Source: a virus
Lineage: Duplodnaviria; Caudoviricetes
DNA: 61,923 nucleotides
IMG/VR virus record: IMGVR_UViG_3300028284_000458
Span: 1 to 61,923 of that record
Direction: 5' to 3' (one strand)
The notes under the pieces were generated by a model that made no database searches, was not told where the DNA came from, and saw only the letters and a program-made list of their open reading frames with translations. Made by a program: the position numbers and the translations under genes. This document shows positions 1 through 35,749 of this stretch, one piece after another; position 1 is the stretch's first letter, and every line of letters begins with the position of its first letter.

Positions 1-171
1 ACCTACATACACATTATCTTTACCAAACTTTTTTACAAGGTGCTGGTAAGTTCCATAGTGTCCTTTATGCATAGGTTGAAACCTACCCACATAGATAACT
101 ACTGTTTTTTTAATAGGATTTTCATCCTCAAGTAGTATTTGCTCTACCAAGTATTTTGAAAGTTCACTCAT
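1..171 (-). CDS. Cytidyltransferase-like (HxGH nucleotidyltransferase) protein, N-terminal part; runs off the window
   Basis: Manual translation from ATG 171: MSELSKYLVEQILLEDENPIKKTVVIYVGRFQPMHKGHYGTYQHLVKKFGKDNVYVG. GRFQPxHxGH is the nucleotidyltransferase signature. Not in the ORF track. Confidence 0.8.
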   Translation of the reverse strand, partial: MSELSKYLVEQILLEDENPIKKTVVIYVGRFQPMHKGHYGTYQHLVKKFGKDNVYVG

Positions 172-192
172 ATGAATTACACACTATTAGTA

Positions 193-201
193 TATAAATA
201 T
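193..201 (-). promoter_or_regulatory. ATATTTATA candidate late promoter
   Basis: Recurrent intergenic motif, 21 nt upstream of ATG 171. Confidence 0.55.
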
Positions 202-215
202 AAAGTATTGGATAA

Positions 216-332
216 TTAGTGATTTTTATAAGTAAAGGGATCTCTTTTTCGCAGTTCTTCTAATTTTTTTTTGTATACCTTATCCAATTTACGTTTCTTA
301 AGATACATTTTAATAATTTTTACTATATTCAT
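216..332 (-). CDS. Small basic hypothetical protein (38 aa)
   Basis: Manual translation MNIVKIIKMYLKKRKLDKVYKKKLEELRKRDPFTYKNH*; fills the gap in the operon. Confidence 0.6.
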   Translation of the reverse strand: MNIVKIIKMYLKKRKLDKVYKKKLEELRKRDPFTYKNH

Positions 333-344
333 AATTTTGTATTT

Positions 345-938
345 TTATTTACAATCATCTATTTTTGAAAGTATTGGATTTTTACAAGGCCATTCCATAT
401 TAAACTTAGTATCATCCCATCTTAATCTATTCTGATTATCTACACTATTAAATTCACCAGAGTATGCTAGTTTGTAATTCATAATGCTATCATCCTCCAT
501 TACATAATGTCCACTTGCAAACATTGGTGGAACTAATACTTGAGTAGCCGTTTCTGGTGATAGGATAAAAGATTCTGATTTACCATATTGTGGATTAGTA
601 TTTAAATTACCTCCCCTTAAATCTAATATTACTAAATAAATTTTTCCATGAGTACATGATATCAGTTTCCAAGTTTTGTTATCATAATACATTCCTCTCA
701 AAACTCCTTCTTTTGATTTAACATATCCATCATGTTTAAATTTTAATCCTGAATTTCTATCAACTGCAGGTAATATTCTATCATAATAATCAGTATGATA
801 TGTTGTTGAGGCAGAACCTCTTAATTCATACTGAGTTGATGGTTGTATAATCTTTACCTGATTTAGTATACTTCCATGGTAGAAGTGAAAATCATTCCAA
901 TCTCTTTCTTTATAAAATATACTACGCCCTTGTGCCAT
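345..938 (-). CDS. rmlC: dTDP-4-dehydrorhamnose 3,5-epimerase family (RmlC-like cupin)
   Basis: Motifs SKxGVLRGM, LISCxxGxIYxVxxDLR, VPPMFAxGH, xWDDxxxxxEWP, LSxxD. Start moved to MAQGRS (938) to remove a long overlap. The usual RG[LM]H His appears as Tyr. Confidence 0.8.
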   Translation of the reverse strand: MAQGRSIFYKERDWNDFHFYHGSILNQVKIIQPSTQYELRGSASTTYHTDYYDRILPAVDRNSGLKFKHDGYVKSKEGVLRGMYYDNKTWKLISCTHGKIYLVILDLRGGNLNTNPQYGKSESFILSPETATQVLVPPMFASGHYVMEDDSIMNYKLAYSGEFNSVDNQNRLRWDDTKFNMEWPCKNPILSKIDDCK

Positions 939-4179: not shown

Positions 4180-4181
4180 AA

Positions 4182-6466: not shown

Positions 6467-6475
6467 AATTTATAT

Positions 6476-13763: not shown

Positions 13764-13766
13764 AAT

Positions 13767-14597: not shown

Positions 14598-15021
14598 TGT
14601 TAAAAGTTTTTAATTCAATTCTATGACTGATACAATCACCATAGATATTATTATTAGTTCTACTAGAATTTGCAGCTATTGCAAATACAAATGAATTACA
14701 ATACATAATATCTTCATTAAGATAACATTCACTACTGTGGCCACTATGGTTTATTTCTTGAGTAAATAGTACATTGTAGGTTACATCGATATTATTAAAA
14801 TATTTTGTGAATATCAACTCTTTTAAATTTTTAAACAATGATATATTGTTTAATATTAAGTGACCTGTGTAAAATTCATCATTATCTAATTCATGTTTTT
14901 TAATTTTAGTATAACATTCTTCAATTGTACCAACGTATAAATCAACATGAGGTGGAAACGAATAATTTAGTTCTTCTGAAATTATTAATGATATTTTTCC
15001 GTTGTAAAAATTAGTGTTCAT
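14560..15021 (-). CDS. Hypothetical protein
   Basis: 153-aa ORF packed in the operon. Confidence 0.5.
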   Translation of the reverse strand: MNTNFYNGKISLIISEELNYSFPPHVDLYVGTIEECYTKIKKHELDNDEFYTGHLILNNISLFKNLKELIFTKYFNNIDVTYNVLFTQEINHSGHSSECYLNEDIMYCNSFVFAIAANSSRTNNNIYGDCISHRIELKTFNNENSSLFKWPVT

Positions 15022-17034: not shown

Positions 17035-17855
17035 ATATGTAATTTTAAATAATTTGCCCACTTCTGATGTGATAGCTCAGTTGGGTGATGATTATCAAAT
17101 AAATCAACTTGCTTATGTTCTTTTAGTGTTGTGAGTATAAATTCTTTAAATGTTATATCTAGAAAATTACTCTCACGTAACTTTATGTATTGTTTTTTTA
17201 TTTGAAGATTTTCTGATGAAAATGGTATTCTTTTAATAGCTTTTATTAAATTAACACTATCCAATATACCATGTTTCGATGGGTCATTTGTTGCTTCAAA
17301 TGTTTCATAGAATGCATCAAAAAATATATGTTTTATATTATGTGAATTTAAATAAGTATGTATATTGATATTTTGAATTAAGTATCTCATAATATACTCT
17401 TCTTGATTCCAAAAATAAGTAGTATATAATTTGGTAAATTCTTCAAATCCATTAGATGGTGTATGGATAGCAGGTGATGCTGGATATATAGTTTCCCACC
17501 TACCTGAATCAGATTCATTCATTATATCTCTATAATAGAAATCCTTTCTTTCAGGAGAAGTCCATCCTACTATTACAAAAATTTCATCTGCATTATATTT
17601 TTCTAATAAATTTCCAACTTGTGATATTACTCTTTTTTCTATACCATCATTAGATGAACCTGCATGTGAAGTATTACGTACCTCAATGTTAGTTAGTTTT
17701 GATAACTTATCTGGCCATACTTTTGGTAATCGGTATGCATCATTATCTCTGTGGTCAATATTTGTGATACCACGTGCTTCTAATTTAGGATCTATTATAT
17801 CACCAGCTGTCCAACTATCTCCCTCGGTTAGTATTATCTTTATATTATTATTCAT
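17031..17855 (-). CDS. SGNH/GDSL-like protein
   Basis: GDSWTAG, GSSN, GWTSPER, HHPTELSH; start at MNNNIK. Confidence 0.7.
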   Translation of the reverse strand: MNNNIKIILTEGDSWTAGDIIDPKLEARGITNIDHRDNDAYRLPKVWPDKLSKLTNIEVRNTSHAGSSNDGIEKRVISQVGNLLEKYNADEIFVIVGWTSPERKDFYYRDIMNESDSGRWETIYPASPAIHTPSNGFEEFTKLYTTYFWNQEEYIMRYLIQNINIHTYLNSHNIKHIFFDAFYETFEATNDPSKHGILDSVNLIKAIKRIPFSSENLQIKKQYIKLRESNFLDITFKEFILTTLKEHKQVDLFDNHHPTELSHQKWANYLKLHI

Positions 17856-18618
17856 TATCAACCCATTCGTTTTTGAATAAAACAGGGTGGAATCCATTAC
17901 CAGACATATCCATTAATTTATAATACGTTCGTTTTGAAAAATCAGTAGAAAATACATTTCTTAAACCACTAGTACCATACTCATATGCCTTTTTTAACCA
18001 AGAATTATAATCAGTAAAAAACTCAGTCCAACTCAACTCATCTGCCGTACTAAGTTGAATACTTATTTTTGAAATATCTCCACAGAATATTGATTGATGG
18101 GTTTCTGCTATTAATGTTGCACAACCTATCCATGTGTAAGAATCTGAATAATCAATTATATTATCATAGTTCATTTTTTCAGAAAGCTCAGATTTAGTTT
18201 CTATTAATGTAAATTCTTTCCTATTAAGGTTGTGATTTAAAACAATATCATAATATCTATCTTCTTCAATCTCCCCATTATTGAAATCCCAATTTAAATC
18301 GAACTCCATACGTTTTTCCACATCCGTTCCTGTTTCGATATCATGTGACCAAAAAACCCATCCTATTTTTTTATAAATCAAACCATTATCTCCTCTATAT
18401 CCGTTATGAAATATTCCAGCATGTTTACCATTCTTTGCAATTACTGCTCCATTGTATACACCTGTTTCTTCTATAATTTTATTTATTTTTTTTGTATCTG
18501 GTTTAAATCTACAATATATAGAAAAATCTCCCTTAAGTAAATCTTGCATATTATAGTTAACTAAATTGTATTTATCTCCGTTTGCAAAGAAAAATATATT
18601 ATTTTTATCTATTATCAT
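17848..18618 (-). CDS. Stand-alone LamG/ConA-like lectin-fold protein
   Basis: FSIYCRFKP, WIGC...FxGDI, DMSGNGFH; resembles the inserts in the two GT7 genes. Confidence 0.6.
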   Translation of the reverse strand: MIIDKNNIFFFANGDKYNLVNYNMQDLLKGDFSIYCRFKPDTKKINKIIEETGVYNGAVIAKNGKHAGIFHNGYRGDNGLIYKKIGWVFWSHDIETGTDVEKRMEFDLNWDFNNGEIEEDRYYDIVLNHNLNRKEFTLIETKSELSEKMNYDNIIDYSDSYTWIGCATLIAETHQSIFCGDISKISIQLSTADELSWTEFFTDYNSWLKKAYEYGTSGLRNVFSTDFSKRTYYKLMDMSGNGFHPVLFKNEWVDNE

Positions 18619-20048
18619 AATTTTATAGTTTGTGTATGTTCGTAAAAATCTGCTAGTTCTGGATAAACTTCTTTAAAATTAGTTTCTCTACGTCTATCAT
18701 GTTCTTTAAAGAACACCCCAAAATCACGTCTTTGTTTTAACAGCTCCTCTTCGTTTCTATCGGTAAGCATCCAATCATATGTTCTTTTTACTTTTTGTAT
18801 CTCAACATCAGAATATCCCACATGTACATGTTCAAATTTTGGAATACCAAGGTAATCCATGTGTCTTGCAGCATCTTTTATTTTTATAGCCCATTCTTCT
18901 GGTAAAACTTTTACAGTTTGGTGTTTAGGATATCGTAAATAAGATGTATCTAAAAATACTGCAGAGTTCCAATATCTATCACTCGAAGTATATTTCATCT
19001 TTAAATCATAAATATAATCTATTAATTCTTTATAACTTGGTACTGATAGTGCATTAAAGGTTGACATTACCGTGATGCTAACTCGCTTACAACTTGCAAG
19101 AATTTTATTTACATTTTTATCAAATTGTTCCCAATTCAATCCGTTTCTAATGTACTCTGCTTGTGCACCAAATCCATCAACAGATGTAAATATAATAAAT
19201 TCTTCTACAAGTTCCCTATCTTCAATTGCTTGAATTTTTTCTATTAATCTATCAACCAATTTATCAGGAATTCCTAAATTAGAATTTATTGCTAATCTTA
19301 ATTTTTTGTTTGGATTGGGTTCGTTTATAATATAATCCAATACTCCCCACGTATCCTTACTCATAAGTGGTTCTCCACCTGTAATTCTGAATGTATGTAA
19401 ATCTCTATATAAATCTGGCCACCATTTCCAAAATGCTTCTACATATGGATTGTGTTCTGTATGTAATATAGGAACTTTTCCTTCTCCAATCAATCCATCC
19501 AAATCATTAAATTTATCAAGTGTTGGATATGCTCCTTCTGCTTTTACTTCTTGCATCCATGCTGATGAAAAAGAAGGTCCACAATATGAACATTTAAAGT
19601 TACAAGCGTTTGAGAATGCAACTTCTACGTATTTAGGATTGTAATCTCCCCTCCAACCCAAATCTTTAATTTCTTGCATGTGTGGAAGTGACCAAGATTC
19701 TGCTGATTTAAATACCCTATCTGAAAACTGAGGTGATGCATCTTCAACATCCCAACAATAATGACATTCTTCAGGCCTTCCACCTTCTAACATTTCTTTA
19801 CGAATACGTTTTTTATAACGTGTATTATGTAATGCAGAAGGGTTTCGTTTTATCTCACTTTCATTTATCTTATGTGTTGTTGGGTGATGACAAGAATGAG
19901 TATGTCCCATTTGTAAGTGAATTGTAACTTGTGTCCACTTAGCTAAACAGAATCCACATCCTTGTGCATCAAGTTCTTTCTTAGTATTAAGATAGATTGG
20001 ATTGTTAGCAAAAGCTAAAGAAGGATCCTTTTTTGGTGTTTCACTCAT
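18615..20048 (-). CDS. Radical SAM protein with N-terminal twitch domain
   Basis: N-terminal CLAKW..SCHH..CHYCW, then CNFKCSYC, TGGEPL, SVDG. Confidence 0.85.
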   Translation of the reverse strand: MSETPKKDPSLAFANNPIYLNTKKELDAQGCGFCLAKWTQVTIHLQMGHTHSCHHPTTHKINESEIKRNPSALHNTRYKKRIRKEMLEGGRPEECHYCWDVEDASPQFSDRVFKSAESWSLPHMQEIKDLGWRGDYNPKYVEVAFSNACNFKCSYCGPSFSSAWMQEVKAEGAYPTLDKFNDLDGLIGEGKVPILHTEHNPYVEAFWKWWPDLYRDLHTFRITGGEPLMSKDTWGVLDYIINEPNPNKKLRLAINSNLGIPDKLVDRLIEKIQAIEDRELVEEFIIFTSVDGFGAQAEYIRNGLNWEQFDKNVNKILASCKRVSITVMSTFNALSVPSYKELIDYIYDLKMKYTSSDRYWNSAVFLDTSYLRYPKHQTVKVLPEEWAIKIKDAARHMDYLGIPKFEHVHVGYSDVEIQKVKRTYDWMLTDRNEEELLKQRRDFGVFFKEHDRRRETNFKEVYPELADFYEHTQTIKL

Positions 20049-21520
20049 AATTTTACGTTTATTAATTTTGCTTTTGGTGTTATCTCTTCAATTTCAAGTA
20101 ATTCATATTCCAACTGTTCAATACCATCGGATTTATAATCCCACGTTCCTTGTTGCATCTCGTGAATGTACCTTTTCTCATTTCGAGCAGTAGTTTTTCC
20201 CTTTGCCCAAACATCATTTCCATTTGAATCCTTAACCATACCTTCATCCTTATGTGGCAAACAATTCATTTTTCCATCTTTACGATGTGGTATAACGGTA
20301 TGTGGAATTTTAATTTCTTCTTTATTAAACATCCCTCTTGTTATTTTACCATCTATACCATTACCACTCAAATCAATAGCTATTCTTGTTGAATCAATTT
20401 GTTCTTTGTTGTTAAAATCATAGTGTAACACAAGTTTATCGGTTGGTATTTCTTTATGTATGTTTGAAATCTCATCTGAATCTAAACATCGATTCCACAT
20501 CATTACTTTAGCTATATCACCCTTAAACCATTTATTGGGTTCTGTTTTAGAAGTTGAAGTGGTTGTTCCTAAATAATAATCATCTAATCCATATGATTTT
20601 AATCTATCTTGATATTTAAGTGGTGATTGTGTACCATGTCCATGTCTTGCATCTGATTCTTTACCATTTAAATAAAAGTGTATATTTTGTTTAGATGTAT
20701 CAACACTCAAGGTAATCCATGCCCATTGGTTTTCATATCGTTTTATCCATTGATACAAATGATTCTGAGTACTATCCCACAATTGAGCAGTATATGCTCT
20801 AGAGTTATTATAACTCAATCCATAATCATATCCTGGTCTTCTTAATATTGGATATTCACAGAACCTTCTATCATCATCACCTATTAACCAAATTGGAACT
20901 TTTTCTTCTTGTTGATTTGCTCTTACTAATACTGATATAGTGTGGGAACGAGAGGTTAATGATTTTAATTTCTTATGTCTTGGTATTTTTACAAAACTAT
21001 TTTTACCGTTAAATGATAGGTAGTTATCTAATTTACTTGAATAATCAAGATACGTATCATTTGCATATCCTTCTAAAGCACATCTCCAAAACAAATCATC
21101 ATCTTCCATTCCCCAATCCCAATAATCATTTGAATAACCATTGGTTCTTTCAACTTGTTCTTTTGAGAATATAACAGCTCCTCCAAAATACTCTTCATAT
21201 TTTAGATTATAATCCATTTGGGATATTGAAGTTGCAATATGTATTGGAGTTGTATTAGGAAAAGAATAATCTGCTCCACCATCTTCTTCAGGTATCATAT
21301 CAATATCATGCCAAACTATATAATCACACCCATCTTCAAATGCGTGTTTTGCAGCAACGTTTTTCATTGCTCCTCTATTAAATAATTTATCATCACATTG
21401 ATGACCAAAATACATACAATAATCAATACCCATCTTATCAAGATATTCACCAACCTCTGGTACAAATCTTTTTAAATGAGCTTCCCTATTTCTATATGGT
21501 ACACAAACTCCTAGTTTCAT
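20045..21520 (-). CDS. GT7 (beta-1,4-galactosyltransferase-like) with internal LamG domain
   Basis: VPYRNR..HL, FNRG, HDID, YFGG, NGYSNxYWxWGxEDDD; ~250-aa LamG insert; GT7 C-terminus resumes (H...N..R...DG..L.Y...I.V.L). Confidence 0.85.
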   Translation of the reverse strand: MKLGVCVPYRNREAHLKRFVPEVGEYLDKMGIDYCMYFGHQCDDKLFNRGAMKNVAAKHAFEDGCDYIVWHDIDMIPEEDGGADYSFPNTTPIHIATSISQMDYNLKYEEYFGGAVIFSKEQVERTNGYSNDYWDWGMEDDDLFWRCALEGYANDTYLDYSSKLDNYLSFNGKNSFVKIPRHKKLKSLTSRSHTISVLVRANQQEEKVPIWLIGDDDRRFCEYPILRRPGYDYGLSYNNSRAYTAQLWDSTQNHLYQWIKRYENQWAWITLSVDTSKQNIHFYLNGKESDARHGHGTQSPLKYQDRLKSYGLDDYYLGTTTSTSKTEPNKWFKGDIAKVMMWNRCLDSDEISNIHKEIPTDKLVLHYDFNNKEQIDSTRIAIDLSGNGIDGKITRGMFNKEEIKIPHTVIPHRKDGKMNCLPHKDEGMVKDSNGNDVWAKGKTTARNEKRYIHEMQQGTWDYKSDGIEQLEYELLEIEEITPKAKLINVKL

Positions 21521-21930
21521 AATGTATTTGAAATTTCTTCTTTAAATTTTGTCGTACTCCAACCATGAGAACGATCTATCCAATGAATAAGTATGCCCAA
21601 ATCATCTCCTGTATATTTTTTATCTACATAATCATCTCCTAAAAATCTTACATCAGGATTAATTGATTTTAATAAAAAATACAATTCTTTCTCGGTATTA
21701 TAAGTTAAAAAAGTAGGTTGGGTAAAAAAATACTTTAACATACTCTTACGTTCTTCTGTATTGAGTATTGGTTTTAGCTTTTCAGGTCGTTCTATTTGTG
21801 GATTATCGTGTAACAAAACATATTGATTAGTACACTTTTTATTCATCTCTTCAAATAGTTTAATATAACCTGGATGTACTACATCAAAGTTTCCACATAT
21901 TACTCCTATTTCTAATTTACTTACTTCCAT
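21517..21930 (-). CDS. Cytidylyltransferase (TagD/RfaE-II-like)
   Basis: GNFDVVHPGY, KPI...ER, GDDY, RSHGWSTT. Confidence 0.85.
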   Translation of the reverse strand: MEVSKLEIGVICGNFDVVHPGYIKLFEEMNKKCTNQYVLLHDNPQIERPEKLKPILNTEERKSMLKYFFTQPTFLTYNTEKELYFLLKSINPDVRFLGDDYVDKKYTGDDLGILIHWIDRSHGWSTTKFKEEISNTL

Positions 21931-23360
21931 AGTTCTACTGATAAAAAATAATAATTTTCCATTTTTGTATCTGATAATAATTTAAATCTAACATTATCAA
22001 TACCATCTCTTTTATAATCGGATTTTCCTTTTAATACTTTATTATAAAAGTGTAATTGGTTTTTTCGTGTATCTGTCCAAGTCCATTTATTTTCATAGAA
22101 ACCATTTTCTTTATGATACAACAATTCAAATGTAGAATCTCTTCTCCAAGGAATTGGTATTGACATAAAATCACTAGCTTGTTGAATTGGTACTTTATCA
22201 CAATCTATAACTTCAGCATTTCTACCCTTTCGGTTTCCACTTAAATCAGGAATATTAGAATAAGTTGCAGTTTTCATATCATAACATACTTCAAGAGTAT
22301 GTGGTGCAATATAATTACCATAAGCCTCAGTAAGTCCCATTGATTTGTTTGTAGATATTTCCTTAACTTGAGCTTCTTCTAGTGAATGATTAAATATTGC
22401 AAAATAATCAATAGTTCCACCAAACGGTCTTCTATTATTAAATTCCAATGAAGGAGAATCACCCAAGTACATCTTCTTTTCAGAAGCATAGTTTATTAAA
22501 TTACCAGGAAATTCAATTAAATCTACTAACTCTCCATCTTGATAAAATTTAATAATATTATCATCTTGATTTACAGTAACACATAGTGTAGTTTGCTTAG
22601 GAGGAGATATATTTGATTTTAAACTTATACAATCTTTATCGGTATTGAATACTTCAAATTTATATCTTTTATATGAATTATACGAAAAACTTAAATCATA
22701 TCCAGGAATACAGAAAATATTATACTCATCTGATGCATATCCTTCATTACATTCGATTTCATTTGGCTCAAACGAACAAAATATAGTATAGTTTTTTAAC
22801 CTAAAAGGTTTAGGTATAGTAACCTTACTAGTATATCCATTTAGTTTTAATGCGGCTGAAGAGTGTGAATTTAATGGTAGTTCTTTTTTGTTAAAATCAG
22901 TAAAGTTTTCCTTACATCTCCAAAGTAAATCATCATCCTCATAACCCCATCCCCAATATTTGTTAGAATAACCATTTATATGGTAATAATCATTTATTGG
23001 AAACATAGTAACACCACCAAAATATTCATCAAAAACAATACGTTTCTGTTTTTTGTAGTGATTTGATATAAAATTAGTAGCTAAATGAGTAGGTCTATCA
23101 ACTATAGAATAATCGACAGCCGTACTTGGTATCATATCAACATCATGTAGTACTATGTAGTTACACCCAAGTTCCTTAGCTTTATTCACACCTATGTTTA
23201 ATAGAGAACCTCGATTGAACGGAAGTTCATCGGATTGTTCTACTATAATCAATTCATAATCTATCTTAGATTTATTGAAATGATTTTTTATAGATGTTGT
23301 AAAGTGATTTAGGTGCGTTCTACGATTCCTATATGGTACAATGATACCAAGTTTATTCAT
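21921..23360 (-). CDS. GT7 (beta-1,4-galactosyltransferase-like) with internal LamG domain, paralog
   Basis: VPYRNR..HL, EQ...FNRG, HDVD, YFGGV, NGYSNKYWGWGYEDDD; LamG insert; DGI..V.F C-terminus. Confidence 0.85.
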   Translation of the reverse strand: MNKLGIIVPYRNRRTHLNHFTTSIKNHFNKSKIDYELIIVEQSDELPFNRGSLLNIGVNKAKELGCNYIVLHDVDMIPSTAVDYSIVDRPTHLATNFISNHYKKQKRIVFDEYFGGVTMFPINDYYHINGYSNKYWGWGYEDDDLLWRCKENFTDFNKKELPLNSHSSAALKLNGYTSKVTIPKPFRLKNYTIFCSFEPNEIECNEGYASDEYNIFCIPGYDLSFSYNSYKRYKFEVFNTDKDCISLKSNISPPKQTTLCVTVNQDDNIIKFYQDGELVDLIEFPGNLINYASEKKMYLGDSPSLEFNNRRPFGGTIDYFAIFNHSLEEAQVKEISTNKSMGLTEAYGNYIAPHTLEVCYDMKTATYSNIPDLSGNRKGRNAEVIDCDKVPIQQASDFMSIPIPWRRDSTFELLYHKENGFYENKWTWTDTRKNQLHFYNKVLKGKSDYKRDGIDNVRFKLLSDTKMENYYFLSVELWK

Positions 23361-23614: not shown

Positions 23615-24463
23615 TTAAATACTAATAATTTTTCTTGTTAATCTATTCCATTTTGAATAATCAAAATGAAACTTATTTTCTGTTTTTTCTATCATAAATT
23701 CTGGATTGTTGATATCTATTTTCCAATCATTAATTTCGATTGCTTTATACATCTTTTTATATTCTTTCCAGAATGAATAATCTTCAAGTGTTTCAGATAC
23801 TTCTTTTAAACGTTCTAAAACAGTTGAATCCCATTTAAAATGATGAACTTGTACAAATCCCTCACCTCTTCCAATTGGGTATCTGAGAGGGTGTTTAAAT
23901 CCTTCCATACCCCATACATGAGATTCGTTTATTATTGCATAGTGTTGACCAGGCGTTACATCCACCGAACCTTTCATTATACAAACTTTATTTGGACAAG
24001 CTCCACTCATTGGATATCTAAAATACCCCACAAGTGGAAACTTACTCCATATATCAGTTTCGTTTGTTACCAAAGGAAACTCTCCGTTCTCTCCTATCCT
24101 ATCGAGAAAACCTCCTGTTATGAATTTCCATCCATTCTCCTCACATTCAGAAATCATCTCTCTGATTGGTTTTGGGTAAACATGGAATTCATCATCATCC
24201 GAAACCACCCACCATTCCTGAGGCTTTGTTCGTTTAACTTCGTTATATAATTGGGTTACTCTTTCCCAATTAAATTTTTCTTCTGTTACTATTTTATGTG
24301 GGGTTATTCCAAGAGATTTTATTTCATCTAAAATCCCATCGTTTTCATGTTGTCTATAAACAACAACATAAATTTCATCAACAATGTTTTTATAGTGTTC
24401 CATCATATGTGGAAGCATTGTAATGTTATGACCAACAACTGTAACTAAATTTATTTTTTGCAT
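23615..24463 (-). CDS. GT2-like glycosyltransferase
   Basis: LPHMMEHY, WWVVSDDDEF (DxD), GQH, HHFKW. Confidence 0.7.
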   Translation of the reverse strand: MQKINLVTVVGHNITMLPHMMEHYKNIVDEIYVVVYRQHENDGILDEIKSLGITPHKIVTEEKFNWERVTQLYNEVKRTKPQEWWVVSDDDEFHVYPKPIREMISECEENGWKFITGGFLDRIGENGEFPLVTNETDIWSKFPLVGYFRYPMSGACPNKVCIMKGSVDVTPGQHYAIINESHVWGMEGFKHPLRYPIGRGEGFVQVHHFKWDSTVLERLKEVSETLEDYSFWKEYKKMYKAIEINDWKIDINNPEFMIEKTENKFHFDYSKWNRLTRKIISI

Positions 24464-25230
24464 CTTTGTAGAAATGTTAATCCAGTTGAAGATGGTCTAC
24501 TTTTAAGTATACCATTGTTAAAAAAATTGAAAATTTCCCACTCTTTATTTTCCTTTAATTCTGCTATAAGCTTAGAAGGTCCAGCTGCGTACTCATGGTG
24601 AAACTCATCAAGAATATCATCTGAAATGATATGTTCCTTCTCATATGATGAATCGGTATCGTGAATTGTTATGATACCATGTGGTGAGAGTATTTTTGAA
24701 TATAACTCAAAATCATTTTTAACATCCTCATAGGTATGACCTGCATCTATGTGTAGATAATCTATCTTAATACCCTCCTTTACAAAAAAGTTATAGTAAG
24801 CATTTTCTGTTGTATCTAGTATGAATCTACACGGAAACGTTTTTCTAAAATATGAATCTTTATTGTTCCAATCCGTATATCCACCAACTCCATTTGAAGC
24901 ATCAACTAATATGGTTGTACCACTATCACCCCATTCCATTGCTTTATCACCATCAAATATTTCTTGCTCATGTAAATCAATTCTTGCTTGGGACATTATT
25001 CTTGGAATAAATCCACCACCACTTCCTAAACATACACAAGTTTTTGCTCTCATGTATTGTATTGTACTATAGATTAACATACCATCTCCCAAATGTTTAT
25101 CGGTAGCCCCATGAGTCCATCGATACTTAACAGGTGTTAATTCATCATATGCAATACCATTGACATCGATACATTCTTTCCTATTATTAGTAAAGTAATC
25201 TTTTATAAGATTGAAATTTATAATACTCAT
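24451..25230 (-). CDS. Class I SAM-dependent methyltransferase (Methyltransf_24-like)
   Basis: CLGSGGG, IDYLHIDAGHTYEDVxxDF, GIITIHD. Confidence 0.85.
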   Translation of the reverse strand: MSIINFNLIKDYFTNNRKECIDVNGIAYDELTPVKYRWTHGATDKHLGDGMLIYSTIQYMRAKTCVCLGSGGGFIPRIMSQARIDLHEQEIFDGDKAMEWGDSGTTILVDASNGVGGYTDWNNKDSYFRKTFPCRFILDTTENAYYNFFVKEGIKIDYLHIDAGHTYEDVKNDFELYSKILSPHGIITIHDTDSSYEKEHIISDDILDEFHHEYAAGPSKLIAELKENKEWEIFNFFNNGILKSRPSSTGLTFLQRCKK

Positions 25231-25433: not shown

Positions 25434-26627
25434 TTATGAAATATGTGAATTTATATTTTCTACCCACGATTTTCTATTATCAAAAGACATCATATAAGTT
25501 TTTAATTTTGCAAACTCTGCAAATCTATCATTATGTGTATCTCTACGTATTTGCTTAATACATTTATCAAATTCATTCTTTGTAGATGCTCTGTATTTGT
25601 AATCAACTCCCTTTGCCCAATTAGTATGTATTATTGGCAACTTACCATAATCAACAGCTTGAAAGATTGAGTATCCGAATGGTTCTTTAAAATATGCTCC
25701 ATGGAATATTCCAAAATCTTTTCTCATAAAAGAATCAAGAATCTCTGGCATCCATTGATAAAATTTAATATTAGGAAACGTGTAATTGGTACTATCTTTT
25801 AAATTTTGAAAATCATACTTGCTTGATAAAATAAATCCAGAACTACCATGCATCCAATGCATACACTTTCTTGTTTCTGCTCTTGATGCAAACCCCACAT
25901 TTTCAAAATTAAGACTATCGGTAAACGGAATATTATGTTTAAATTCATAATAATTAGGAATAGAATATGTGTAATTTGGAAAATCATCAACAAGTTGTGT
26001 TGGATTGTTTCCTATCCAAATTCTTTTATCAAATGATTGTACAAATTCTTTATAGAAAGCAGAATCAACTTTCGTATTAAATTGTAATCTTTTTAATTCT
26101 GGCATATGTGTTAGAACTTCTTCCATTTCACTTGGATATGCATGAACAAATATTAATTTAAATTTATTTTCATATTTCCAAATGTGTTCTCTTTTGTGAT
26201 AATGAGAATGTAAATAGTATATCTCCGAACATTCTTCTAACAAATCAGTTGTTATTTCATTATCATCTCCATGAAAGTGCCAATCTAAATCACTTGGTAG
26301 TGAATCCGGATTAAAGTCAACAGGTTTTTTAGAATCAATTAATAACTTCCAATTTTTTCTAAATTTAATTCCCTTCCAAATATTTTCTATAAAATTATTT
26401 GTCCAAATATCAGCACCACCTTCAATTGTATTACCACAACCGGTAGTAATCATTAATTTTTTACCCATTTTTTTACCATCGGTGGGATTTCTAAACTTTT
26501 CATCAAAAGATAATTGATTGTTTATTTTAGAAACTAATACATCGGTATCAATATATTCATCTGAATTTATTAGGTAATTTACTAACGAAGATGTTAGTTC
26601 TTTTTTTTCTTTTTTGTATAACTTCAT
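25434..26627 (-). CDS. GT-B (GT4-like) glycosyltransferase
   Basis: GGADIW near the N-terminus; EPFGYSIFQAVDYGKLPI (ExFG-type motif). Confidence 0.7.
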   Translation of the reverse strand: MKLYKKEKKELTSSLVNYLINSDEYIDTDVLVSKINNQLSFDEKFRNPTDGKKMGKKLMITTGCGNTIEGGADIWTNNFIENIWKGIKFRKNWKLLIDSKKPVDFNPDSLPSDLDWHFHGDDNEITTDLLEECSEIYYLHSHYHKREHIWKYENKFKLIFVHAYPSEMEEVLTHMPELKRLQFNTKVDSAFYKEFVQSFDKRIWIGNNPTQLVDDFPNYTYSIPNYYEFKHNIPFTDSLNFENVGFASRAETRKCMHWMHGSSGFILSSKYDFQNLKDSTNYTFPNIKFYQWMPEILDSFMRKDFGIFHGAYFKEPFGYSIFQAVDYGKLPIIHTNWAKGVDYKYRASTKNEFDKCIKQIRRDTHNDRFAEFAKLKTYMMSFDNRKSWVENINSHIS

Positions 26628-26638
26628 TAATTTTATTT

Positions 26639-29600
26639 TTAACCACAGTAGAGGTAACCATATACATCTTCCATTCTACCATTTGAATCCCATGAAGATG
26701 ATTCCATGGCTTTTGCTACTGTATACGAACATTGTGTTTGTCTTTCTTCGTAAATTGGAGTTGTATCACCATTAAAGCCAGTTACAACCCACTCTGATGG
26801 TTGTTTCATTAAATAACCTGGTGTATCCGAAGAACAAAGTAAATCACCAGGTACAACATCACCACCTTGATTACACATTTTGAATCCTGTCACAGTATAA
26901 TAAGAGCCAGATTGATTATAGTCTCTACTATCCCCAACAGAAGCTACCTTCCAAATTTCTTTAGAACCAGTCTCACTCGTAGGAATAAAATTACAAAAAG
27001 AATCCATAAACGAACCAGATGTAAAATAATCAGGTGGATTATTATTTTTAGAACCAGTTGATTCTCCAATAATCGATAACCCAGACGAATTATATTCTAA
27101 CTCAAGTTTCTCCCATAAAATCCCAACAACAGAAGTATCTTTTGCCGTTGAAACTTTTTGAAGTTCGTTATTTGAATCTAACTTTACTAAATCACCTGAT
27201 GAGATTGATACTGTTTTATCTTTTTTATATCGGTGTCCTAATGTTACAAGTTCTGCTAATTTTGCATTCACATTATGTGAAAGTATTCCATCTGAAATAT
27301 AATTATGAACTATATCTAATTCATAATTCCAAACTTGAACTTCTTCATCAAAAGTTTCTATACTTTTTATTTTATCAATAATCAATTTTTTATCTTCATA
27401 AACATACAACTCACCACCAACTCCAAGTTCATCTATTGCAATCGCAGAGTTTGGATAATCAGGATGATATAGTAAATGTGAGTTAGAACATTTTAATTTT
27501 TTACCTAATTCTGTTTCGATTTTACTCCATCCTTGTACTTTATTGGTAATAATTTCATCAATTGATGACCATCCCCATTCTTTAGTTTCAAAGTTAAATA
27601 TTTTGATTACATCATCTTCTTTTGTATCTTCTACATTTATCTCACCTCGTTTAGAAATAATTTTAGTACCAGGCAATACACAACTATATCCAGTTAAATT
27701 ACTTGAAATACTCGATAATTCAGTATCAATATCCGCTTGCAAGCCTGAGAATGATGAACTACCAAATCTAGTACTAGAATTAAATTTAAAACCACTATTA
27801 TCAATTGAAAAGATACTACTAAATGCAGCTGTTCTAGTACCATCAAGTACTTTCGCTTCTTTTCTAATTCTCAGGTCTGTACCAGATGGGTCAAATACAC
27901 TACTAAAAGGTGCACCACCAACTTTAGCAGTAGTACCAAATGATGCAACACCTGAAGAACTTATATTAAAATCTGGTGCTGATATGAATCCACCTGAATT
28001 TATAATCATACCACTAGTCGTATTAGTTCCATCACCCCCACCACTTACAGTTCCACCTTGTAATTGAGTTGAGGTAAGTGCCCATCCACCAATAGTTCCT
28101 GATGTTGCCGTTATTGCTCCAGATACATTTACACCGGTTGCCGTTAAAACTCCTGCAGAATCTACTGAGAATGCTGGTGAAGAAGAACCTCCAAACCTCA
28201 TATTTCCACCAGCAATATTAATCTGACCACCTGCAGTTGTAGTCCAATTCGCGGATTCTATTGTTCCTGTGGTGATTTTAGAACCATCAATGGTTGTTAC
28301 ATTTGCCATATCACTAGTAGCAAAACCTCCAGCATTAATTAAATTTTGAGCCGCAGTTGCTGCAGCTGTTGCAGTAGTTGGAGTTACACTAGTCGTACCA
28401 TCTGTTAATCCGGCTCCTGAGAATGTTACCAATCCACTAAATCCTATTGCTTGTGTTACAGTACCAAATGTTACAGTACTTGCGTATCCAGGTCTATCAC
28501 TATCCTCTGTTGCGGTGTAGTTTGAATACCAATATTTGTTAGAGTTACCAGATGCATAAGTTGGTGTTGCCGTACTCCAATTTGTTGTAAGTGATGTGAA
28601 TGTATCTGGAAATGTTAATCTAGTTGCAGTAGGTAAAGCAGGTGCGGTTGCAGCTACATTTGCAAAGTTTACTCTACCTGTTACTGTTCTCAATCCATCA
28701 GCACCACCAGGACCTGTACCTCCATCAACTGCAAAGTTAGCAAATTGTGTTGCTCCTGAGAATGAACCAAATGATCCATTTACTGAAGTTCTTTGACTAA
28801 CCCACACATATTTGTTAGAAGCCGTTGGTGTACCAGGAGTAGTTGTCCAACTATCTGTACCGGCTGCAGTTGGTGTAGTTGGAGGCGTTGATGTATTATT
28901 TAATAAGTATATAAATTGAACACCACCTCCTTCTGCACCACTAAACGATTTAGTTATTGTTTGTGTTTTAGTGAATGGACCAAATGCAGTTCCGTTTAAA
29001 GTTTTACCACTAATAGCGTATGATATGGTTACCGAATTAGCTGAATCTGACATTGCTGAGTGGTCTGCAACAAGTGCATTATTTGATGAATCTGTTATAC
29101 CCCCAACCGTAATTCCTGTTGTAGTGGCTGCAACTGTCCAATGACCTGCAGTTGTACCAGCATTATCATAATCTAATTGAGTTGCTCCCTCATAGACACT
29201 TATTGTAGTTCCACTACCACCATGTGAAGAAACCACACCGGCATTACTTGCTGGTACTACGTGAGCCTCATTTGATAATATACCTTGTACATTTCCACTT
29301 CCTACATCTAATTGTTTTAAAGTAAATGTATCCGAAACACTACCATCAGCAGCTGCTGCGGTATAAGTTACAACCATTCCATCTACAAAGTTTGCACTTG
29401 TAACAGTTGTAGAACCACCACTTGTAGATACTGAGGTTGATGTTAATGTTCCAGCTGATGTGGTGAAAGCTCCATTTGCAGTTAAGTTTTGTCCATTTGC
29501 AGTTAATACAATTGAGGTAGGGGTTATATCACCATTTTGTGCTTTTGTAAATATATTAGATGTTCCACCAAGTACTACTGTTTTAGCATTATCCCCAGCA

Positions 29601-32600
29601 ATTCCTTCTTTTGCTTTACTTATTGCCTGAGTTTTATTGAAACTAAAATCAGTTCCGTTTAAAGTTTTACCACTAATAGCATATGTTATTACAACTGAAT
29701 CTGTTGAATCTGACATTGCTGAGTGTTGTGCAACAACGGCAAAATTCGTATCATCTGATATAGTACCGATTGTGAGTGTTGAACTTGGAGATTGAGTAGT
29801 AGTAACTGTCCAATGACCTGCAGTTGTACCATCATTATCATAATCCAATGCAGTTGCTCCTTCGAATACACTTATTGTAGTTCCACTGCCACCATAAGAT
29901 GTAACCGAACCATCCACATCTGCTGGTAGTACATGTGCTTCGTTTGATAATATTGCAGTTACATTACCACTTCCTTCATCTAATTGATTGAATGTTACAG
30001 TATCTGCTATTGAATCATCATTACTATGTGCAGTATAAGTTACAGTCATACCATCTACAAAATCTGAAGCTAGAAGAGTTGCAGTTCCACCATTTACACT
30101 TTCTGTTACCGAATCTAGAGTTACAGAATCCGTTGCTGTAAATGAACCTGCTTGAGTTAAGTTTTGTCCATTTGCAGTTATTACTATTGATGTTGGACTT
30201 AAAACACCAGCTCTACTTTTTCTGAATATTGGTGATGCTGAAGTTAAGGTTACCGTTTTAGCATTTGTACCAACTACTCCCTCTTTTGCTTTTGAAAAAC
30301 TTTGAGTTGTTGTACGTGAAAAATCATCTCCTCCAAGTCTTTTTCCTGATATAGTATAAGTTAAAACAACAGAATCAACACTCATTGCACTTGGTGCTGC
30401 TATGGTTGCCTTTTGTGTTCCATTACCAGTAACTGCTCCTTCTGTTAATCCACCAACATCTTCTACACTAATACTAAATTCACCATCTGTAGGTGTTCCT
30501 GATGTAAATGTTAAAATATCCGCACCTTCATAAACTTCTATTGTAGTACCACCACCTGTGAAATCCGATACTGAACCTTCTGCAGTTGCAGGAAATGTAT
30601 GAGATGAATTAGAATTAGATATTTGTATTGCATCTTTTCCTGCTCTACCTTTAGTAATACTTTGTTGAAATGAACCACTAAATAATTCTCCATTCAGTTT
30701 TCTACCGATATATGGATATGCAATATTAACCACATCAGTATCTATATCCATTGCAGTATGGTCTGCAACCACTGCGTATTTCCCACCATCAGTTATACCA
30801 CCTATTGTTAATTTATTAGCTGGTGTTACAATAGATGTAGTTAATTTCCAATGTCCTTGATATGGACTTGTTGGATTTAAGGGATTGAATTCTAGTAGAG
30901 TTGCTCCCTCATATATACTTAATTGTGTACCACTATTAGAAAAATCTAAAATAGAACCAGTCGCATCTGCTGGAAACATATGAGCTTGATTTGTATTTAA
31001 AATAGTCAAACCATCCGTTCCAGTATCTACTCTAATAATTGAAACGGAATCTTCAAACACAACCCCATCCTCAGAACCTGATACAGTAACTACCGTAGAA
31101 GTTTCTGAACCAGAAATTTCCTCTTTTGCAATTGTTCTTGTTAAACCAGAACCTACCAATGCAATTCCGTTTGTTGAACTAAAATTGAGTGATCCTGAGA
31201 TGTTCTCTTTAGTTGCAGTAAGTGTTATTGAAGATGGAGTAATTGTACCATCTTTTGCTTTTATAAAAACTTGTCCTGATGATTGTAATGAAACTGTTTT
31301 TGCACTAATCCCATCTGCCCCATCAGAAATAATATACCAAGTTTCATTAATTGTATTTTTTTGTCCAGTTCCTGGATCCGTAAATACTGCAGTAACATTT
31401 ATATCTTTAGATGCATATGCAGTATCAAATGCTATGTTGGTTTCATCACCATCAGCTGCTGTCATTACTATATGACCTGTTCCACTTTGTCCAGAAGTAG
31501 GAGTTGCAATTGTCCATTCATCTAAAGGATCACCAAAACTAGGTGTTATTCTTGTAGATAATCTATATTCACTACCTGTTGTATCAAAAAATACTGCAGT
31601 TGCCTTTAAGTATGATGGGTCATATGATGAACTTCCTACCAACCTTCTTGAAACTTTACCTTTAGATGCCACAAACGAACCACCACCAAGACCATCGGTA
31701 ACATCTACCAATGCTATAGTATCAAGCAATGTTCCATCATTTTTTCGTAAATGATATGTTGCTTGTCCATTTATTGCACTACTATCAAGAACTGGATTAT
31801 AAGTTACCCCATTTCCACCATCACTTGTTCCTAATAATGAAGTAGTAAGAAGAGTACTTCCACTATAAATTTGAGCATCTCCTTGAGAAGAACCACTTAC
31901 ATCAAATGAACCTGTTCCATCAATACCTTGTACTTGTAATTCTAAGGTAGCCGTAGGTATATATGCTCCCAACGTGGGTTTAGATGTTCTTCCTGCATTC
32001 TTTATTTGAGTACCTCTCAATGGTCTAATAAAAAATGTTGGTTTTACATCCTCACCAGGTTTTACAAATATAATACTTTCGGTATCTGCAAATAATTCTG
32101 TTGTAGAATCAGTAGCTTCTGAAACACCAACTCTGAATGAAAGTGGTGTACTTATAAAAGTAGAAGGTGGTGTAAATGTTGTAGTTTTACTATTAGCAGT
32201 ATCTCCATCAGTAAACGATGTTTCATCAGTAAAATGAACTCCTCCACCTGTAAATTTGAATTGTGCATCTCTAAAATTAAGAGAATTTGCGGTCAGAGTT
32301 ACAGAAGATGGAACAGGATTTGTTCCATCTGCATCATACATAATAGAATTATCACTAAATGATAAACCTACTTTTTTTGATGGTGAACCCTCTGCAGAAA
32401 CTCCAACTATAAAATTAATTGTTTTACCTGTAAGTTCACTTCCTTCTGAATTTGTTAAAGATACTGTGATAACTCCAGTTACTGCCGTTCCATCTGTTGG
32501 TGTATTTGGAGTGATTGTTCCATCATTATTATTTGTTCCATTTGTTACACCAGTAATTTTAAATTTATTAGCAGTTACAGTTCCTGTTGTATATGTAAAA

Positions 32601-35600
32601 TCAGTAGAACCTTGGTTTACACTAACACTTATATCTGATGGTGTACTAAATGTAAGAAAGTCATATTCTGAATTTACGGTTTGAGTTTGTGGATTCGCTA
32701 TTATTGTTGTAATGGGTTTTGCTTCTCTAATACGAGATATACTTGCAACAATATTTTTAGTATCAGAAGTTCCTTCACCATCTGTAAAGTTTACTGGAAT
32801 AGTAAGAGTTTCTGTATCAGATAACATATCATCCGCAGTATCACTAAATGTAATAGTATTTGATGATACTGTTCCACTCAATCCACCACTATATACCACA
32901 GTTCCTATTGAATCAAATCTATTCTCACCACCTTCTGTTGCTTTTACTTCAATAGTTTTAGGTGATTCAGAACCACTTCCTACTGAATTTGCATTTATTC
33001 CTTGTGATTGTAAGTTTACACTTACCTCTACATTTGGAACTGCTTTTTTAGATTTTGTATAAGATACAATTTTTTGAAATGATTGAGATGTTGAGTTATC
33101 ACCTGCAAGATATTCTATATTTAAACTTAATGAACCACTATCGTGTTGATTTGGAAATGCAGATATACCATACTCAGATGTTGTTGGTGATGTTGATATT
33201 GCAGTTACATTTGTTTCTGTTATCGAAGTAATATCAAATGTGTTTTTATTTCTTCCCCCACCAATATCATCATGTTCTATTTGAGTTCCTCCAATGAACA
33301 TTTGAACATTTCCTTTACTTGAACCAAATCCACCAGGTACATCTCCTGTTGATTTTGCTGGAAATGAAGTTGATTCATTTGAAAGTACAAGTGAAACTGC
33401 ATCAAAGTTTATAACTGGTGATATTGTTATCTCATCTGAAAATGGTAAATCAAATTGGTCAGAACCAGTAAATGAATAAGTTGTTTCTGGAAATGATCCA
33501 CCAGCAAATGATGAAGAATATTGTAAAGCTGATATTGTGTATGTATCAATACCTGTTCCATTATCAGTTACAGGTCCAACCAATGGTGGAGCTCCACTTC
33601 CTGAGTTTACTTCTATTGGGGTTGTTAATGAAAATAAGTTTTTACGTTGGGCTCTTATAGTTGCACTTTGCCCACCTGGTTTTGGTGAAAGAGTTGTTGG
33701 TTCGTATATAAATTGATTTACATTTGAAGTTACAATAAGTTGTGGTGCATTATCACCATCTTCTAATCTATATACAGTTTCAAATTCTTCAAGTTCTTCT
33801 ATTGAAGCAGTATAAACAATAGAACCAACTGTAATAGAATCATCACTACCACTAAAATCAGCTATTTTTATAATTGCACCTGCTGATGTTACATTTGAAA
33901 GAGTTCCAGGATAAGTACCACTATATGATGATGGATTTATATATGCTCCATTTACATCAAAAGCGGATGATGCGTAAGTTACAGAACCTGTTAAGTTATT
34001 TGTACGAGTTTTAAATTGTATTTGTTGAAATGGTGGATTCCCTATTGAACCACTTGTAAATCTAAATGCATTTCTATCCGATTCAAATGTTAATAATTTA
34101 TCACTTGAAGGGAAATCGTTACCACCTGTAAATGCTTTTGTTGAAGTTACATCAACAGGTATGTAATTATTATTTATATCATAAAACTCAAATTTGAAAT
34201 CAAATGTTTCTATCGCAAGTTTTCTTGGTATATCTTGTATTAACGTAAACTCATCTGGTGAGAATGATGTATCTTGTGCATTCTTAAGAGATACATTAGA
34301 GATATACCAATCACCACCATCTATATCAAATTTTAAATATGTATCCGTAGCTGTATCGGTTGCTAATATATTTTGAGATACCGTTTGTCTTGTGTTGTAT
34401 ATATCAGAATTATCTATTGTTAAGAAATTCTGTTCATAATTAGAACCACTAAAATATGCACGTATTGATGGAGTACCCACCGAACCACTTTTTAAAGTTC
34501 TGAAATTAAGAGTATATTCAACTCCACTTGATATTTCAAAACTACCACTTGTAGATAATGTTTGAATACCACCTTCGGATTCATCATAATCTATTTTAAC
34601 AGATGCGTTTAATATATCCGAATTGATTGTAACAGGATGGTCATCAGATGATGTTACCCAATAGTTACTTAAATTATTTTCATCGAATCTACCATAAGAT
34701 AATTCAGTATCAGTTGTAGTTGTTATATCTTTTAATAATTCTGATGATTCTAGTTTTGATTCTTGCACAAATTGAAAATCTCCAATTGTGTTTCTTGATT
34801 TCCTAAATACCTTAACTCTGGCAACATCCCCAACAAAGGTTTTTAGATTATTAAAGTTTATTTTTGCAAAAGAACCTGTTAATGCAGAATCTGTTATTGT
34901 TTGTCCTTCTACGAATTCAAAGGTTGTTGTGTATGGAGCTGGAAAGAAATCACCAACCGAAGCATCACTTGAAGTAAATGGAGTATCAACCATCACTTCC
35001 TTATTACTCAATACTTCAATTACATTTGCAGAATAGTTTAATGATGGAACTGAAATTGTATTATCATCTACTGAAGATGTCCAATTACTAATACCATCCT
35101 CTATTTTTAATTTATAATTTACACCAGCTCTCCATTTAGATAAATCAGTTCCACTTGGTGGATTTTGTGATATACCTGATAAACTACCTGTTTGTGTAAT
35201 TTGGGGAATATTTTTTGTAAATATGGGTTTTACGAGTTCATCTATTTTTACGGTAGGTCTTTTGTAAAATCTAACAATAGTTTCATTAGAAACGTTTTTA
35301 TTTATCTGTATATTCTTTTCCCACTTTACATTATAAACTCCCTTCCACTCATTAGGTATATCCAATACCTCATCAAGATCACTTAAATATGTTTTTAATT
35401 CACCAAGAATAGTAATTTTACCAATACCAATAGATACATCATCATAAACATGTATTGCTATTAATTTAGAATTTCCTTCATAATATTCAGGAACTCCATC
35501 ACCAGGTTCAAAATATATTGGATTACCATCCACATCAAGAATCTCTATTTTGATTTCAGTAGATTCTTTTAAGTGTTCAGAACCTTCAATTAAGAATCCA

Positions 35601-35731: not shown

Positions 35732-35749
35732 AGAAATGTATCTTTCCAA

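Follow-up and report, generated by a model that had tools for sequence, protein, structure and literature searches.

Why would a bacteriophage encode glycosyltransferases of the GT7 family with a LamG domain built into their catalytic domain, and what would such enzymes do together with the genes around them? The question is raised by the IMG/VR virus record IMGVR_UViG_3300028284_000458, the entire 61.9-kb sequence of which, estimated to be 24% complete, is called the window hereafter. It carries two such paralogous genes, GT7A (20045-21520, minus strand, 491 residues) and GT7B (21921-23360, minus strand, 479 residues), together with genes for a radical S-adenosylmethionine (SAM) enzyme and for a free LamG-like protein. 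A first-pass annotation had suggested that the inserted lectin selects or holds the acceptor, possibly within a multi-enzyme complex. We report here that the LamG insertion is genuine and that the gene set is conserved in related phages, and we give a probability of roughly 0.5 to the reading that it forms a cytoplasmic glycan assembly and tailoring line, in which nested LamG domains are the handles of intact GT7 enzymes and a radical SAM enzyme carries a docked LamG protein.

Both proteins match three Pfam families above the gathering cut-offs. GT7A matches Glyco_transf_7N (PF13733, 57.9 bits, cut-off 27, residues 2-80), Glyco_transf_7C (PF02709, 69.3 bits, cut-off 23, residues 94-153 corresponding to positions 2-61 of the 78 of the model) and Laminin_G_3 (PF13385, 43.2 bits, cut-off 27.6, residues 172-352). 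GT7B, which is 30% identical to GT7A over its whole length (expectation value, E, 4e-54), scores 67.4, 57.7 and 42.5 bits with the same families and has the same nested architecture, with the insert at about residues 158-403 (nucleotides ~22152-22889). It is the insert that cuts the 7C match short, at position 58-61 of the 78 of the model.

The motif set first read from the DNA (VPYRNR, FNRG, DxD, YFGG and WxWGxEDDD) is present in both paralogues and conserved. In GT7A the N-terminal GT-A core (residues 1-155; 21056..21520, minus strand) contains VPYRNR, FNRG, H71-D72-I-D74, Y111-FGG and W136-G-M-E139-D140-D141-D142, and the C-terminal GT-A core (residues 411-491; 20048..20290, minus strand) contains P411, R413, H423 at the hinge position, N447 and D465-G466. 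Conservation was counted over the window and 80 related loci, which together supply 166 distinct GT7-LamG proteins of full length; these loci are the best 80 of at least 628 IMG/VR stretches encoding a relative, taken with 8-kb flanks. D72 is kept in all 166 proteins, D74 in 163, Y111 (before FGG) in 161, E139 in 150, D140 in 158 and D142 in 165; in the C-terminal part P411, N447 and G466 are kept in all 166, R413 in 156 and H423 in 158. We take the roles of the DxD motif, the catalytic Asp of WGxEDDD and the hinge His from B4GalT1. The retention of catalytic and metal-binding residues in 150-166 of the 166 proteins argues against pseudoenzymes, and GT7A and GT7B are predicted to be catalytically intact, soluble GT7 glycosyltransferases. 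The only hint on their donor is the Tyr before FGG, which in B4GalT1 presumably disfavours N-acetylated donors. A few sources label relatives as 'beta-1,4-galactosyltransferase 1' or as 'hypothetical protein'.

An AlphaFold model of GT7A, built on an alignment of 55 full-length GT7-LamG proteins (A1), has a mean predicted local distance difference test score (pLDDT) of 94.7 and a predicted template modelling score (pTM) of 0.89. With VIA-align the full GT-A fold of this predicted model, C-terminal segment included, superposes on bovine B4GalT1 (1tvy_A, Z 27.9, root-mean-square deviation (rmsd) 2.0, 214 residues aligned, model 1..491 with chain 180..398) and on B4GalT7 (4irq_D, Z 26.9, rmsd 1.9, 207 aligned). 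Foldseek local alignments reach the first 151 columns only, with rmsd 1.2-1.4 against B4GalT1. The A1 profile matches B4GalT1 (2ae7_A) with an E of 1.8e-53 over profile positions 3-154 (chain 65-218), and a weak second match pairs positions 422-470 with chain 235-281.

The GT7A insert (about residues 156-410, 255 residues; 20291..21055, minus strand) starts 14 residues past E139-D-D-D142, ends before P411-x-R413...H423 and includes the trailing motif YDF...D-L-S-G-N-G at residues 367-388. Three independent lines, from insert-less relatives, from profile comparison with the Protein Data Bank (PDB) and from structure, show that it is a true LamG insertion in a GT7 enzyme. Insert-less relatives of about 220 residues, found in a library clustered at 50%, align twice to GT7A and have no counterpart of segment 156-410: in P0224 residues 3-149 correspond to GT7A 2-155 and residues 148-206 to GT7A 411-480, and in P0242, which also aligns twice, the second stretch (150-223) corresponds to GT7A 411-491. 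A profile of 15 of these short proteins matches human B4GalT1 end to end (E 8.3e-59, positions 3-222 with chain 65-282), and a His that never varies in the insert-less relatives falls in this alignment at M340H of 2ae7, which we take to be the metal-binding hinge where the long flexible lid of B4GalT1 begins. The middle of the A1 profile matches LamG-type domains in the PDB, namely those of an S-layer protein, sialidase lectin modules (4yz1, E 6.9e-10) and pentraxins. By structure, residues 163..410 of the GT7A model are closest to the LamG-like domain of PAPP-A (8d8o_B, Z 21.7) and to BACOVA_03559 (4dqa, a putative carbohydrate-binding protein; Z 21.7, 205 aligned), followed by pentraxins (Z 18-19).

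In the predicted model the insert is a LamG/ConA-type jelly-roll sandwich nested between the post-EDDD helix and the P-x-R...H segment. Pfam, the insert-less relatives and VIA-align thus agree with the first-pass annotation, which had described about 250 residues of LamG/ConA-like sequence after EDDD, followed by the resumed GT7 C-terminus. The split GT7 fold with an inserted beta-sandwich that it proposed to look for is also borne out (Z 27.9 for the GT-A fold, Z 21.7 for the insert); by VIA-align the insert is a LamG fold and the C-terminal segment completes the GT-A fold. The description of characterised GT7s as mainly animal Golgi enzymes without an insert fits the PDB matches, but GT7-like proteins without the insert are widespread in bacteria and giant viruses as well.

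The insert diverges faster than the GT7 core. Identity to the window copy is 57% in the insert against 73% in the core for 71 GT7A orthologues, and 34% against 54% for 54 GT7B-type proteins; between the two window paralogues the values are 22% and 39%. The GT7A-type sequences number 72 with the window copy, and in them conservation reaches at least 97% at 44 positions of the insert. Trp, Tyr, Asn and Arg account for many of these, including W248, Y256, W258, Y262, W266, W268, R227, R241, N238 and N239. We infer that the inserts may serve as paralogue-specific recognition surfaces, and it is plausible that a lectin-like insert picks or holds the acceptor.

A related domain is encoded separately, at 17848..18618 (minus strand, 256 residues), by a gene whose start overlaps the stop of the radical SAM gene by 4 nucleotides. 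The protein has no match in Pfam, NCBIfam or PHROG models, and the best hit of A2, an alignment of 27 of its relatives, against the PDB (E 0.0099) is not convincing; 5 of the 27 family members match Laminin_G_3 (PF13385). Its relation to the GT7A insert is visible by profiles only, since BLASTP against GT7A is not significant (E 0.41). In fact, hhalign aligns A2 with A1 at a probability of 99.4% (E 6.4e-22, 215 columns, A2 2-237 with A1 172-387), and the motif DF...YK..D.S.NGN closes both the free protein (residues 227-245) and the GT7A insert (residues 367-388). From the profile match, trailing motif included, the 256-residue protein appears to be a stand-alone copy of the whole insert module. 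The earlier call of a stand-alone LamG gene therefore holds at the level of homology to the insert and of its Pfam-matching relatives, but not as a Pfam match of the window copy itself. In LamG_3 proteins a similar D.SGNGN.G hairpin presumably precedes the domain, and given its trailing rather than leading hairpin the module may be circularly permuted.

The partner gene (18615..20048, minus strand) encodes a 477-residue radical SAM enzyme of the N_Twi_rSAM family. It matches NCBIfam model NF033640 with 356.3 bits against a cut-off of 170 (E 2.3e-106), residues 33-469 covering positions 4-398 of 398. In an alignment of 40 sequences the C149-x3-C153-x2-C156 motif is invariant, and so are C53, C95 and C98 in the N-terminal part, where C34 is kept in at least 90%. 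The model of the enzyme has a pLDDT of 92.9; most of its structural matches span residues 113-431 only and barely cover the N-terminal residues 30-110. The 'N-terminal twitch' of the first-pass annotation is consequently supported as family membership, with conserved N-terminal Cys residues, but 'twitch' is the name of the family and the segment is barely covered structurally. Its PDB neighbours are tied: SkfB (Z 14.5), DesII (13.8), BlsE (13.6), anSME (13.4), PFL-AE (13.1) and viperin (12.8). We rejected an assignment of function from the fold, the top PDB rows being tied and consisting of generic radical SAM cores (Z 12.7-14.5); with such neighbours the chemistry of the enzyme cannot be assigned. 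By sequence, no PDB entry matched it with an E below 0.1, and a literature search on N_Twi_rSAM found no publication with an assayed member or a function. The sole PADLOC match in the window is the radical SAM core, which weakly matches viperin (E 7.8e-06); with no other match there is no sign of a defence system in the window.

Gene order and complex prediction tie the two proteins together. Profile hidden Markov models detect a free LamG open reading frame (ORF) in 61 of the 80 loci, and each of the 65 such ORFs is immediately preceded by a radical SAM ORF. The complex of the two window proteins was predicted in three runs, each protein having its own unpaired alignment (A3 for the radical SAM enzyme and A2 for the LamG protein). 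The interface score ipSAE was 0.61, 0.66 and 0.64 (median 0.64) versus 0.00 in all three controls; in the calibration of this score the mark is reached by 116 of 157 solved complexes and by 2 of 215 mismatched pairs. The runs have at least 71% of contacts in common and a pLDDT of at least 85 in the partners. The predicted interface brings radical SAM residues 391-421 together with LamG residues 16-20 and 231-252, the latter containing the conserved tail motif, of which Y233, K234 and G242 are invariant in A2. Adjacency and prediction together support binding of the free LamG protein to the radical SAM enzyme, and the former is predicted to dock on the C-terminal region of the latter by its conserved YK..D.S.NG motif. 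No LamG-fused radical SAM was found among the 156 radical SAM ORFs of the 80 loci, and an A2 search for longer fused proteins gave none at E <= 0.001 among 6589 candidates, which is weak evidence. What the prediction (ipSAE 0.64 vs 0.00) and the 65/65 adjacency support of the multi-enzyme complex suggested earlier is the radical SAM-free LamG pair only.

These genes belong to a conserved module. In the window the transcription order is GT7B, a gene for a 137-residue cytidylyltransferase-like protein, GT7A, the radical SAM gene and the 256-residue ORF, with overlapping stops and starts. The four genes of the first-pass annotation are all found where it had placed them on the minus strand, but the 137-residue gene (21517..21930, minus strand) stands as a fifth one between the paralogues. 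It encodes an accessory nucleotidyltransferase (PF01467, 38 bits; phrog_7878, E 5e-24), weakly similar to rfaE domain II and TagD, which is present in 16 of the 80 loci. By tblastn the N_Twi radical SAM enzyme is found in 80/80 loci; distinct GT7-LamG genes number two in 52 loci and three in 28, and the module order is fixed. Upstream lie a GT2_4-type glycosyltransferase (23615..24463, minus strand, 282 residues; PF13704, 28.5 bits; 77/80 loci), a Methyltransf_24 methyltransferase (24451..25230, minus strand, 259 residues; PF13578, 44.9 bits; 73/80 loci) and, at the head of the module, a conserved 397-residue protein (25434..26627, minus strand; 59/80 loci). The last has no Pfam match; its Atlas neighbours are viral hypothetical proteins, and the one lead, a weak one, is a cluster in which 10% of the members carry Glycos_transf_1. 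In some related loci, for example L029, L051 and L053 of IMG/VR, N_Twi radical SAM genes stand in tandem, up to six ORFs in a row. The tandem copies are only 21-39% identical to the one in the window, which indicates old diverged paralogues and not recent duplicates.

Protein matches to GT7-LamG number 1607 at 90% clustering; at 50% clustering 4817 representatives match, insert-less forms counted in. Among the matches listed for the genomes of 185,579 prokaryotic species, the full nested form occurs in at least 3 of at least 24 confirmed loci, all three on contigs of metagenome-assembled genomes (MAGs); the other 21 listed loci hold insert-less GT7-like genes, with no N_Twi radical SAM nearby. 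Two of the three nested-form contigs carry the same viral module. One (L084, contig C1 of genome G002, labelled a Flavobacteriaceae MAG) is 248 kb long; its module spans about 167-181 kb, and a homologue of the baseplate wedge protein lies at 96.5-98.4 kb. Module and homologue together identify it as phage DNA, namely a jumbo phage genome that either was binned with a bacterial MAG or is integrated in one; this is a possible hint on the host. The module is present as well on L083, a contig of 23 kb from a Pelagibacterales MAG. Among the matches listed in BFVD, LamG and GT7-like proteins occur separately and none of the viral UniProt models shows the complete nested architecture; literature searches found no publication on a nested-LamG GT7 enzyme or on this phage module. 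The family and the domain are known; the nested arrangement and the conserved system are undescribed.

The window has a G+C content of about 30%, and all its real-looking ORFs of at least 100 residues are on the minus strand. Other genes in it encode a primase, an SbcC-like nuclease and a baseplate wedge protein, which shows 41.5% identity to its counterpart in Microcystis phage Mel-JY01 and 37.4% identity to the one in Flavobacterium phage immuto; contigs related to the window span 130-276 kb. On this gene content, these baseplate relatives and these contig sizes, the window is a fragment of an uncultured aquatic jumbo myophage, an identification made from sequence. Megablast and tblastn searches with the region and GT7A gave no match in a phage genome collection, which may lack near records.

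Immediately upstream of the module lies the gene of a giant fibre-like protein (26639..35749, minus strand, 3036 residues). Its Ser+Thr content is 25%, against about 12% in the enzymes, and pieces of fibre homologues are found upstream of the module in 19 of the 80 loci, as far as the 8-kb flank reaches. In its C-terminal part (residues 2690-2826; 27272-27682, minus strand) the fibre contains a Hint domain like that of bacterial inteins, which matches the Spl DnaX mini-intein (7cfv_A, E 1.4e-5) and a bacterial-intein-like domain (2lwy_A, E 1.2e-4) in the PDB. It has Cys first, His-Asn last and Val next, and because of this Val autoprocessing is a likelier role for it than intein splicing. Farther away, a 1791-residue ORF of the structural region (44898-50273, minus strand) has a weak Laminin_G_3 match at residues 1147-1285 (E 5.2e-4, below gathering), and the virion may bear LamG-type domains of its own.

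On the other side of the module, a block of about 17 kb (345-17061, minus strand) holds sugar-nucleotide genes and genes without assignment. It codes for a dTDP-sugar isomerase-like protein, a kinase-like protein, an aminotransferase, NeuB, a 2-hydroxyacid dehydrogenase, a radical SAM/SPASM protein (6476-7402), two CTP_transf_3 (CMP-transferase-like) proteins and a UDP-glucose dehydrogenase-like protein. Most of these genes have counterparts in 0/80 related loci, which makes them variable cargo beside a conserved core. ORFs 17031-17897 and 16297-17061 (both minus strand) adjoin, and the first matches DUF6071 (E 7.3e-13). The N-terminal G-D-S/C-S-Y-T-A-G of both presumably recalls SGNH/GDSL hydrolases, and they could be sugar O-acyl esterases or transferases. 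Pfam gave nothing meaningful for ORFs 15011-16300 and 13767-14597. No coding-strand ORF of at least 100 residues in the window has a 19-residue Kyte-Doolittle window reaching 1.7; such windows occur in two small ORFs only (25799-25987 and 61024-61260). A 26-kb block of glycan genes without a membrane protein is unusual for envelope-glycan loci. Moreover, no flippase, polymerase or initiating phosphoglycosyltransferase was seen in the window.

How would these parts work together? In the reading to which we give about even odds, the enzymes would act in the cytoplasm of the infected cell, a location suggested by the lack of hydrophobic segments in the ORFs of at least 100 residues and of a flippase, polymerase or initiating transferase. 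The line would be composed of the 397-residue protein, the methyltransferase, the GT2_4 enzyme, two or three GT7-LamG enzymes and one to six radical SAM enzymes. The GT7-LamG enzymes would add successive sugars to a soluble carrier, each LamG domain being a paralogue-specific handle that recognises the growing glycan or the carrier and presents it to the catalytic site, and the radical SAM enzymes, the methyltransferase and the other enzymes would tailor the glycan product. The likeliest carrier would be a protein of the virion, with the neighbouring Ser/Thr-rich giant fibre as the most economical candidate acceptor on adjacency and composition.

Several points weigh against this assembly line. 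Ser/Thr richness is usual in phage fibres and adjacency is weak evidence for a substrate. Since the window holds about 24% of the genome, genes for membrane-bound glycan export could lie elsewhere, or those of the host could be used. In the insert, the residues that are near-invariant across the whole family are G318, G334 and D383 only, so that there is no family-wide binding site, and the proposed position of the insert near the acceptor site comes from the insertion point in the sequence and from the known structure of B4GalT1. With regard to the docked LamG protein, conservation at the radical SAM interface does not differ between the 64 LamG-partnered orthologues (0.45) and the 16 unpartnered ones (0.40), 19 of the 80 loci have no detectable free LamG ORF, and the complex score expresses the confidence of a model run on unpaired alignments, not binding. 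A more ambitious version would see one portable LamG handle, used in cis in the GT7 enzymes and in trans as a subunit of the radical SAM enzymes, steering all of them to one virion-protein glycan as a self-contained cytoplasmic system of O-glycan synthesis and radical tailoring that a widespread lineage of aquatic jumbo phages would encode; we put it forward tentatively, as possible.

The alternative that comes nearest to the assembly line gives the LamG domains another task. The nested domain would be a protein docking or scaffolding domain, which holds the enzymes on a protein substrate such as the fibre or a capsid decoration, or on each other, and the free copy would be an adaptor subunit of the radical SAM enzyme. 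The closest structural matches do include protein-binding LamG-type domains (PAPP-A, Z 21.7, and pentraxins, Z 18-19), the predicted partner of the free LamG protein, contacted by the conserved tail motif, is itself a protein, and no sugar-site residues are conserved family-wide. However, the top matches also include the putative carbohydrate-binding protein 4dqa (Z 21.7) and the sialidase lectin modules (4yz1, E 6.9e-10), and Trp, Tyr, Asn and Arg, residues typical of sugar sites, abound in the patch conserved among orthologues. Pure docking is a serious candidate that we nevertheless consider doubtful; docking and sugar binding are not exclusive. We consider it unlikely that the module instead acts during infection on a glycan of the host envelope (lipopolysaccharide, capsule or S-layer glycan), remodelling it to prevent superinfection, for instance, and leaves the virion undecorated. 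Sugar-nucleotide blocks as large as that of the window are usually tied to cell-surface sugars, and many bacterial genomes contain GT7-like genes without the insert (21 of the 24 genome loci among the matches listed). On the other hand, this block is not conserved with the module (mostly 0/80), the core module stands beside the fibre gene wherever the flank reaches it (19/80 loci), and no membrane protein, flippase, polymerase or initiating phosphoglycosyltransferase was seen in the window.

Two further readings are far less probable than these. The GT7-LamG enzymes might glycosylate hypermodified bases of the phage DNA, as glycosyltransferases that decorate 5-hydroxymethylcytosine DNA are known in phages (bioRxiv 10.1101/2023.12.21.572611), but the text of that preprint mentions neither GT7 nor laminin nor radical. 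No DNA methyltransferase, dioxygenase or hydroxymethylase was seen in the window module, the methyltransferase of which is of the Methyltransf_24 type, and base glycosylation seems very improbable to us. Just as little can be said for decayed or structural genes, namely dead GT7 shells serving as lectin-bearing virion parts: LamG-type domains are common in phage fibres (BFVD matches) and the 1791-residue ORF at 44898-50273 has its weak Laminin_G_3 match, but 150-166 of 166 relatives retain the residues for catalysis and metal binding, and the genes lie in an enzyme operon with overlapping stops and starts.

If the assembly line is real, it would be a natural case of modular substrate targeting, of interest for glycoenzyme engineering. 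GT7 is among the best-understood glycosyltransferase families, and acceptor choice in it is set by a mobile lid and by partners such as alpha-lactalbumin. In the phage enzymes a whole recognition domain would be built in just before this lid, would diverge between paralogues and would also be handed to a radical SAM enzyme as a subunit. Abundant as it is, the module probably shapes surface chemistry across a widespread group of aquatic jumbo phages; it would also give the N_Twi_rSAM family its first functional context.

The closest known systems are B4GalT1 and B4GalT7 (CAZy GT7; 1tvy, 1nf5, 2ae7, 4irq, 3lw6), which have the same GT-A core as GT7A at about 30% identity and have in common with it the DxD, Y-FGG and WGxEDDD motifs, the hinge His and the C-terminal DG.L.Y. 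Unlike them, GT7A has about 250 residues of LamG between the post-EDDD helix and the hinge; unlike B4GalT1 it has no signal anchor or stem, bovine residues 130-179 being without counterpart (the alignment starts at 180); and unlike the animal B4GalTs, GT7A and GT7B are phage-encoded and presumably cytoplasmic. The insert-less GT7-like proteins (P0224 and P0242, and in BFVD A0A5J6VLB6 of Megaviridae and A0A481YZG5 of Mimivirus LCMiAC01) are 36-43% identical to the N-terminal core of GT7A and have the same stem-less compact form, in which this core runs straight into the C-terminal segment; they differ in lacking LamG and, at the 21 bacterial loci, no N_Twi radical SAM was found near them. A GT-A enzyme whose acceptor choice is steered by a lectin-type domain is also found in the polypeptide GalNAc-transferases (GT27), to which the first-pass annotation had pointed as a functional analogy; these belong to another family and have a ricin-type beta-trefoil appended at the C-terminus, not a nested LamG sandwich. 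As for NF033640, the radical SAM enzyme of the window is a full-length member of the N_Twi_rSAM family, here paired with LamG and amplified in tandem in related phages.

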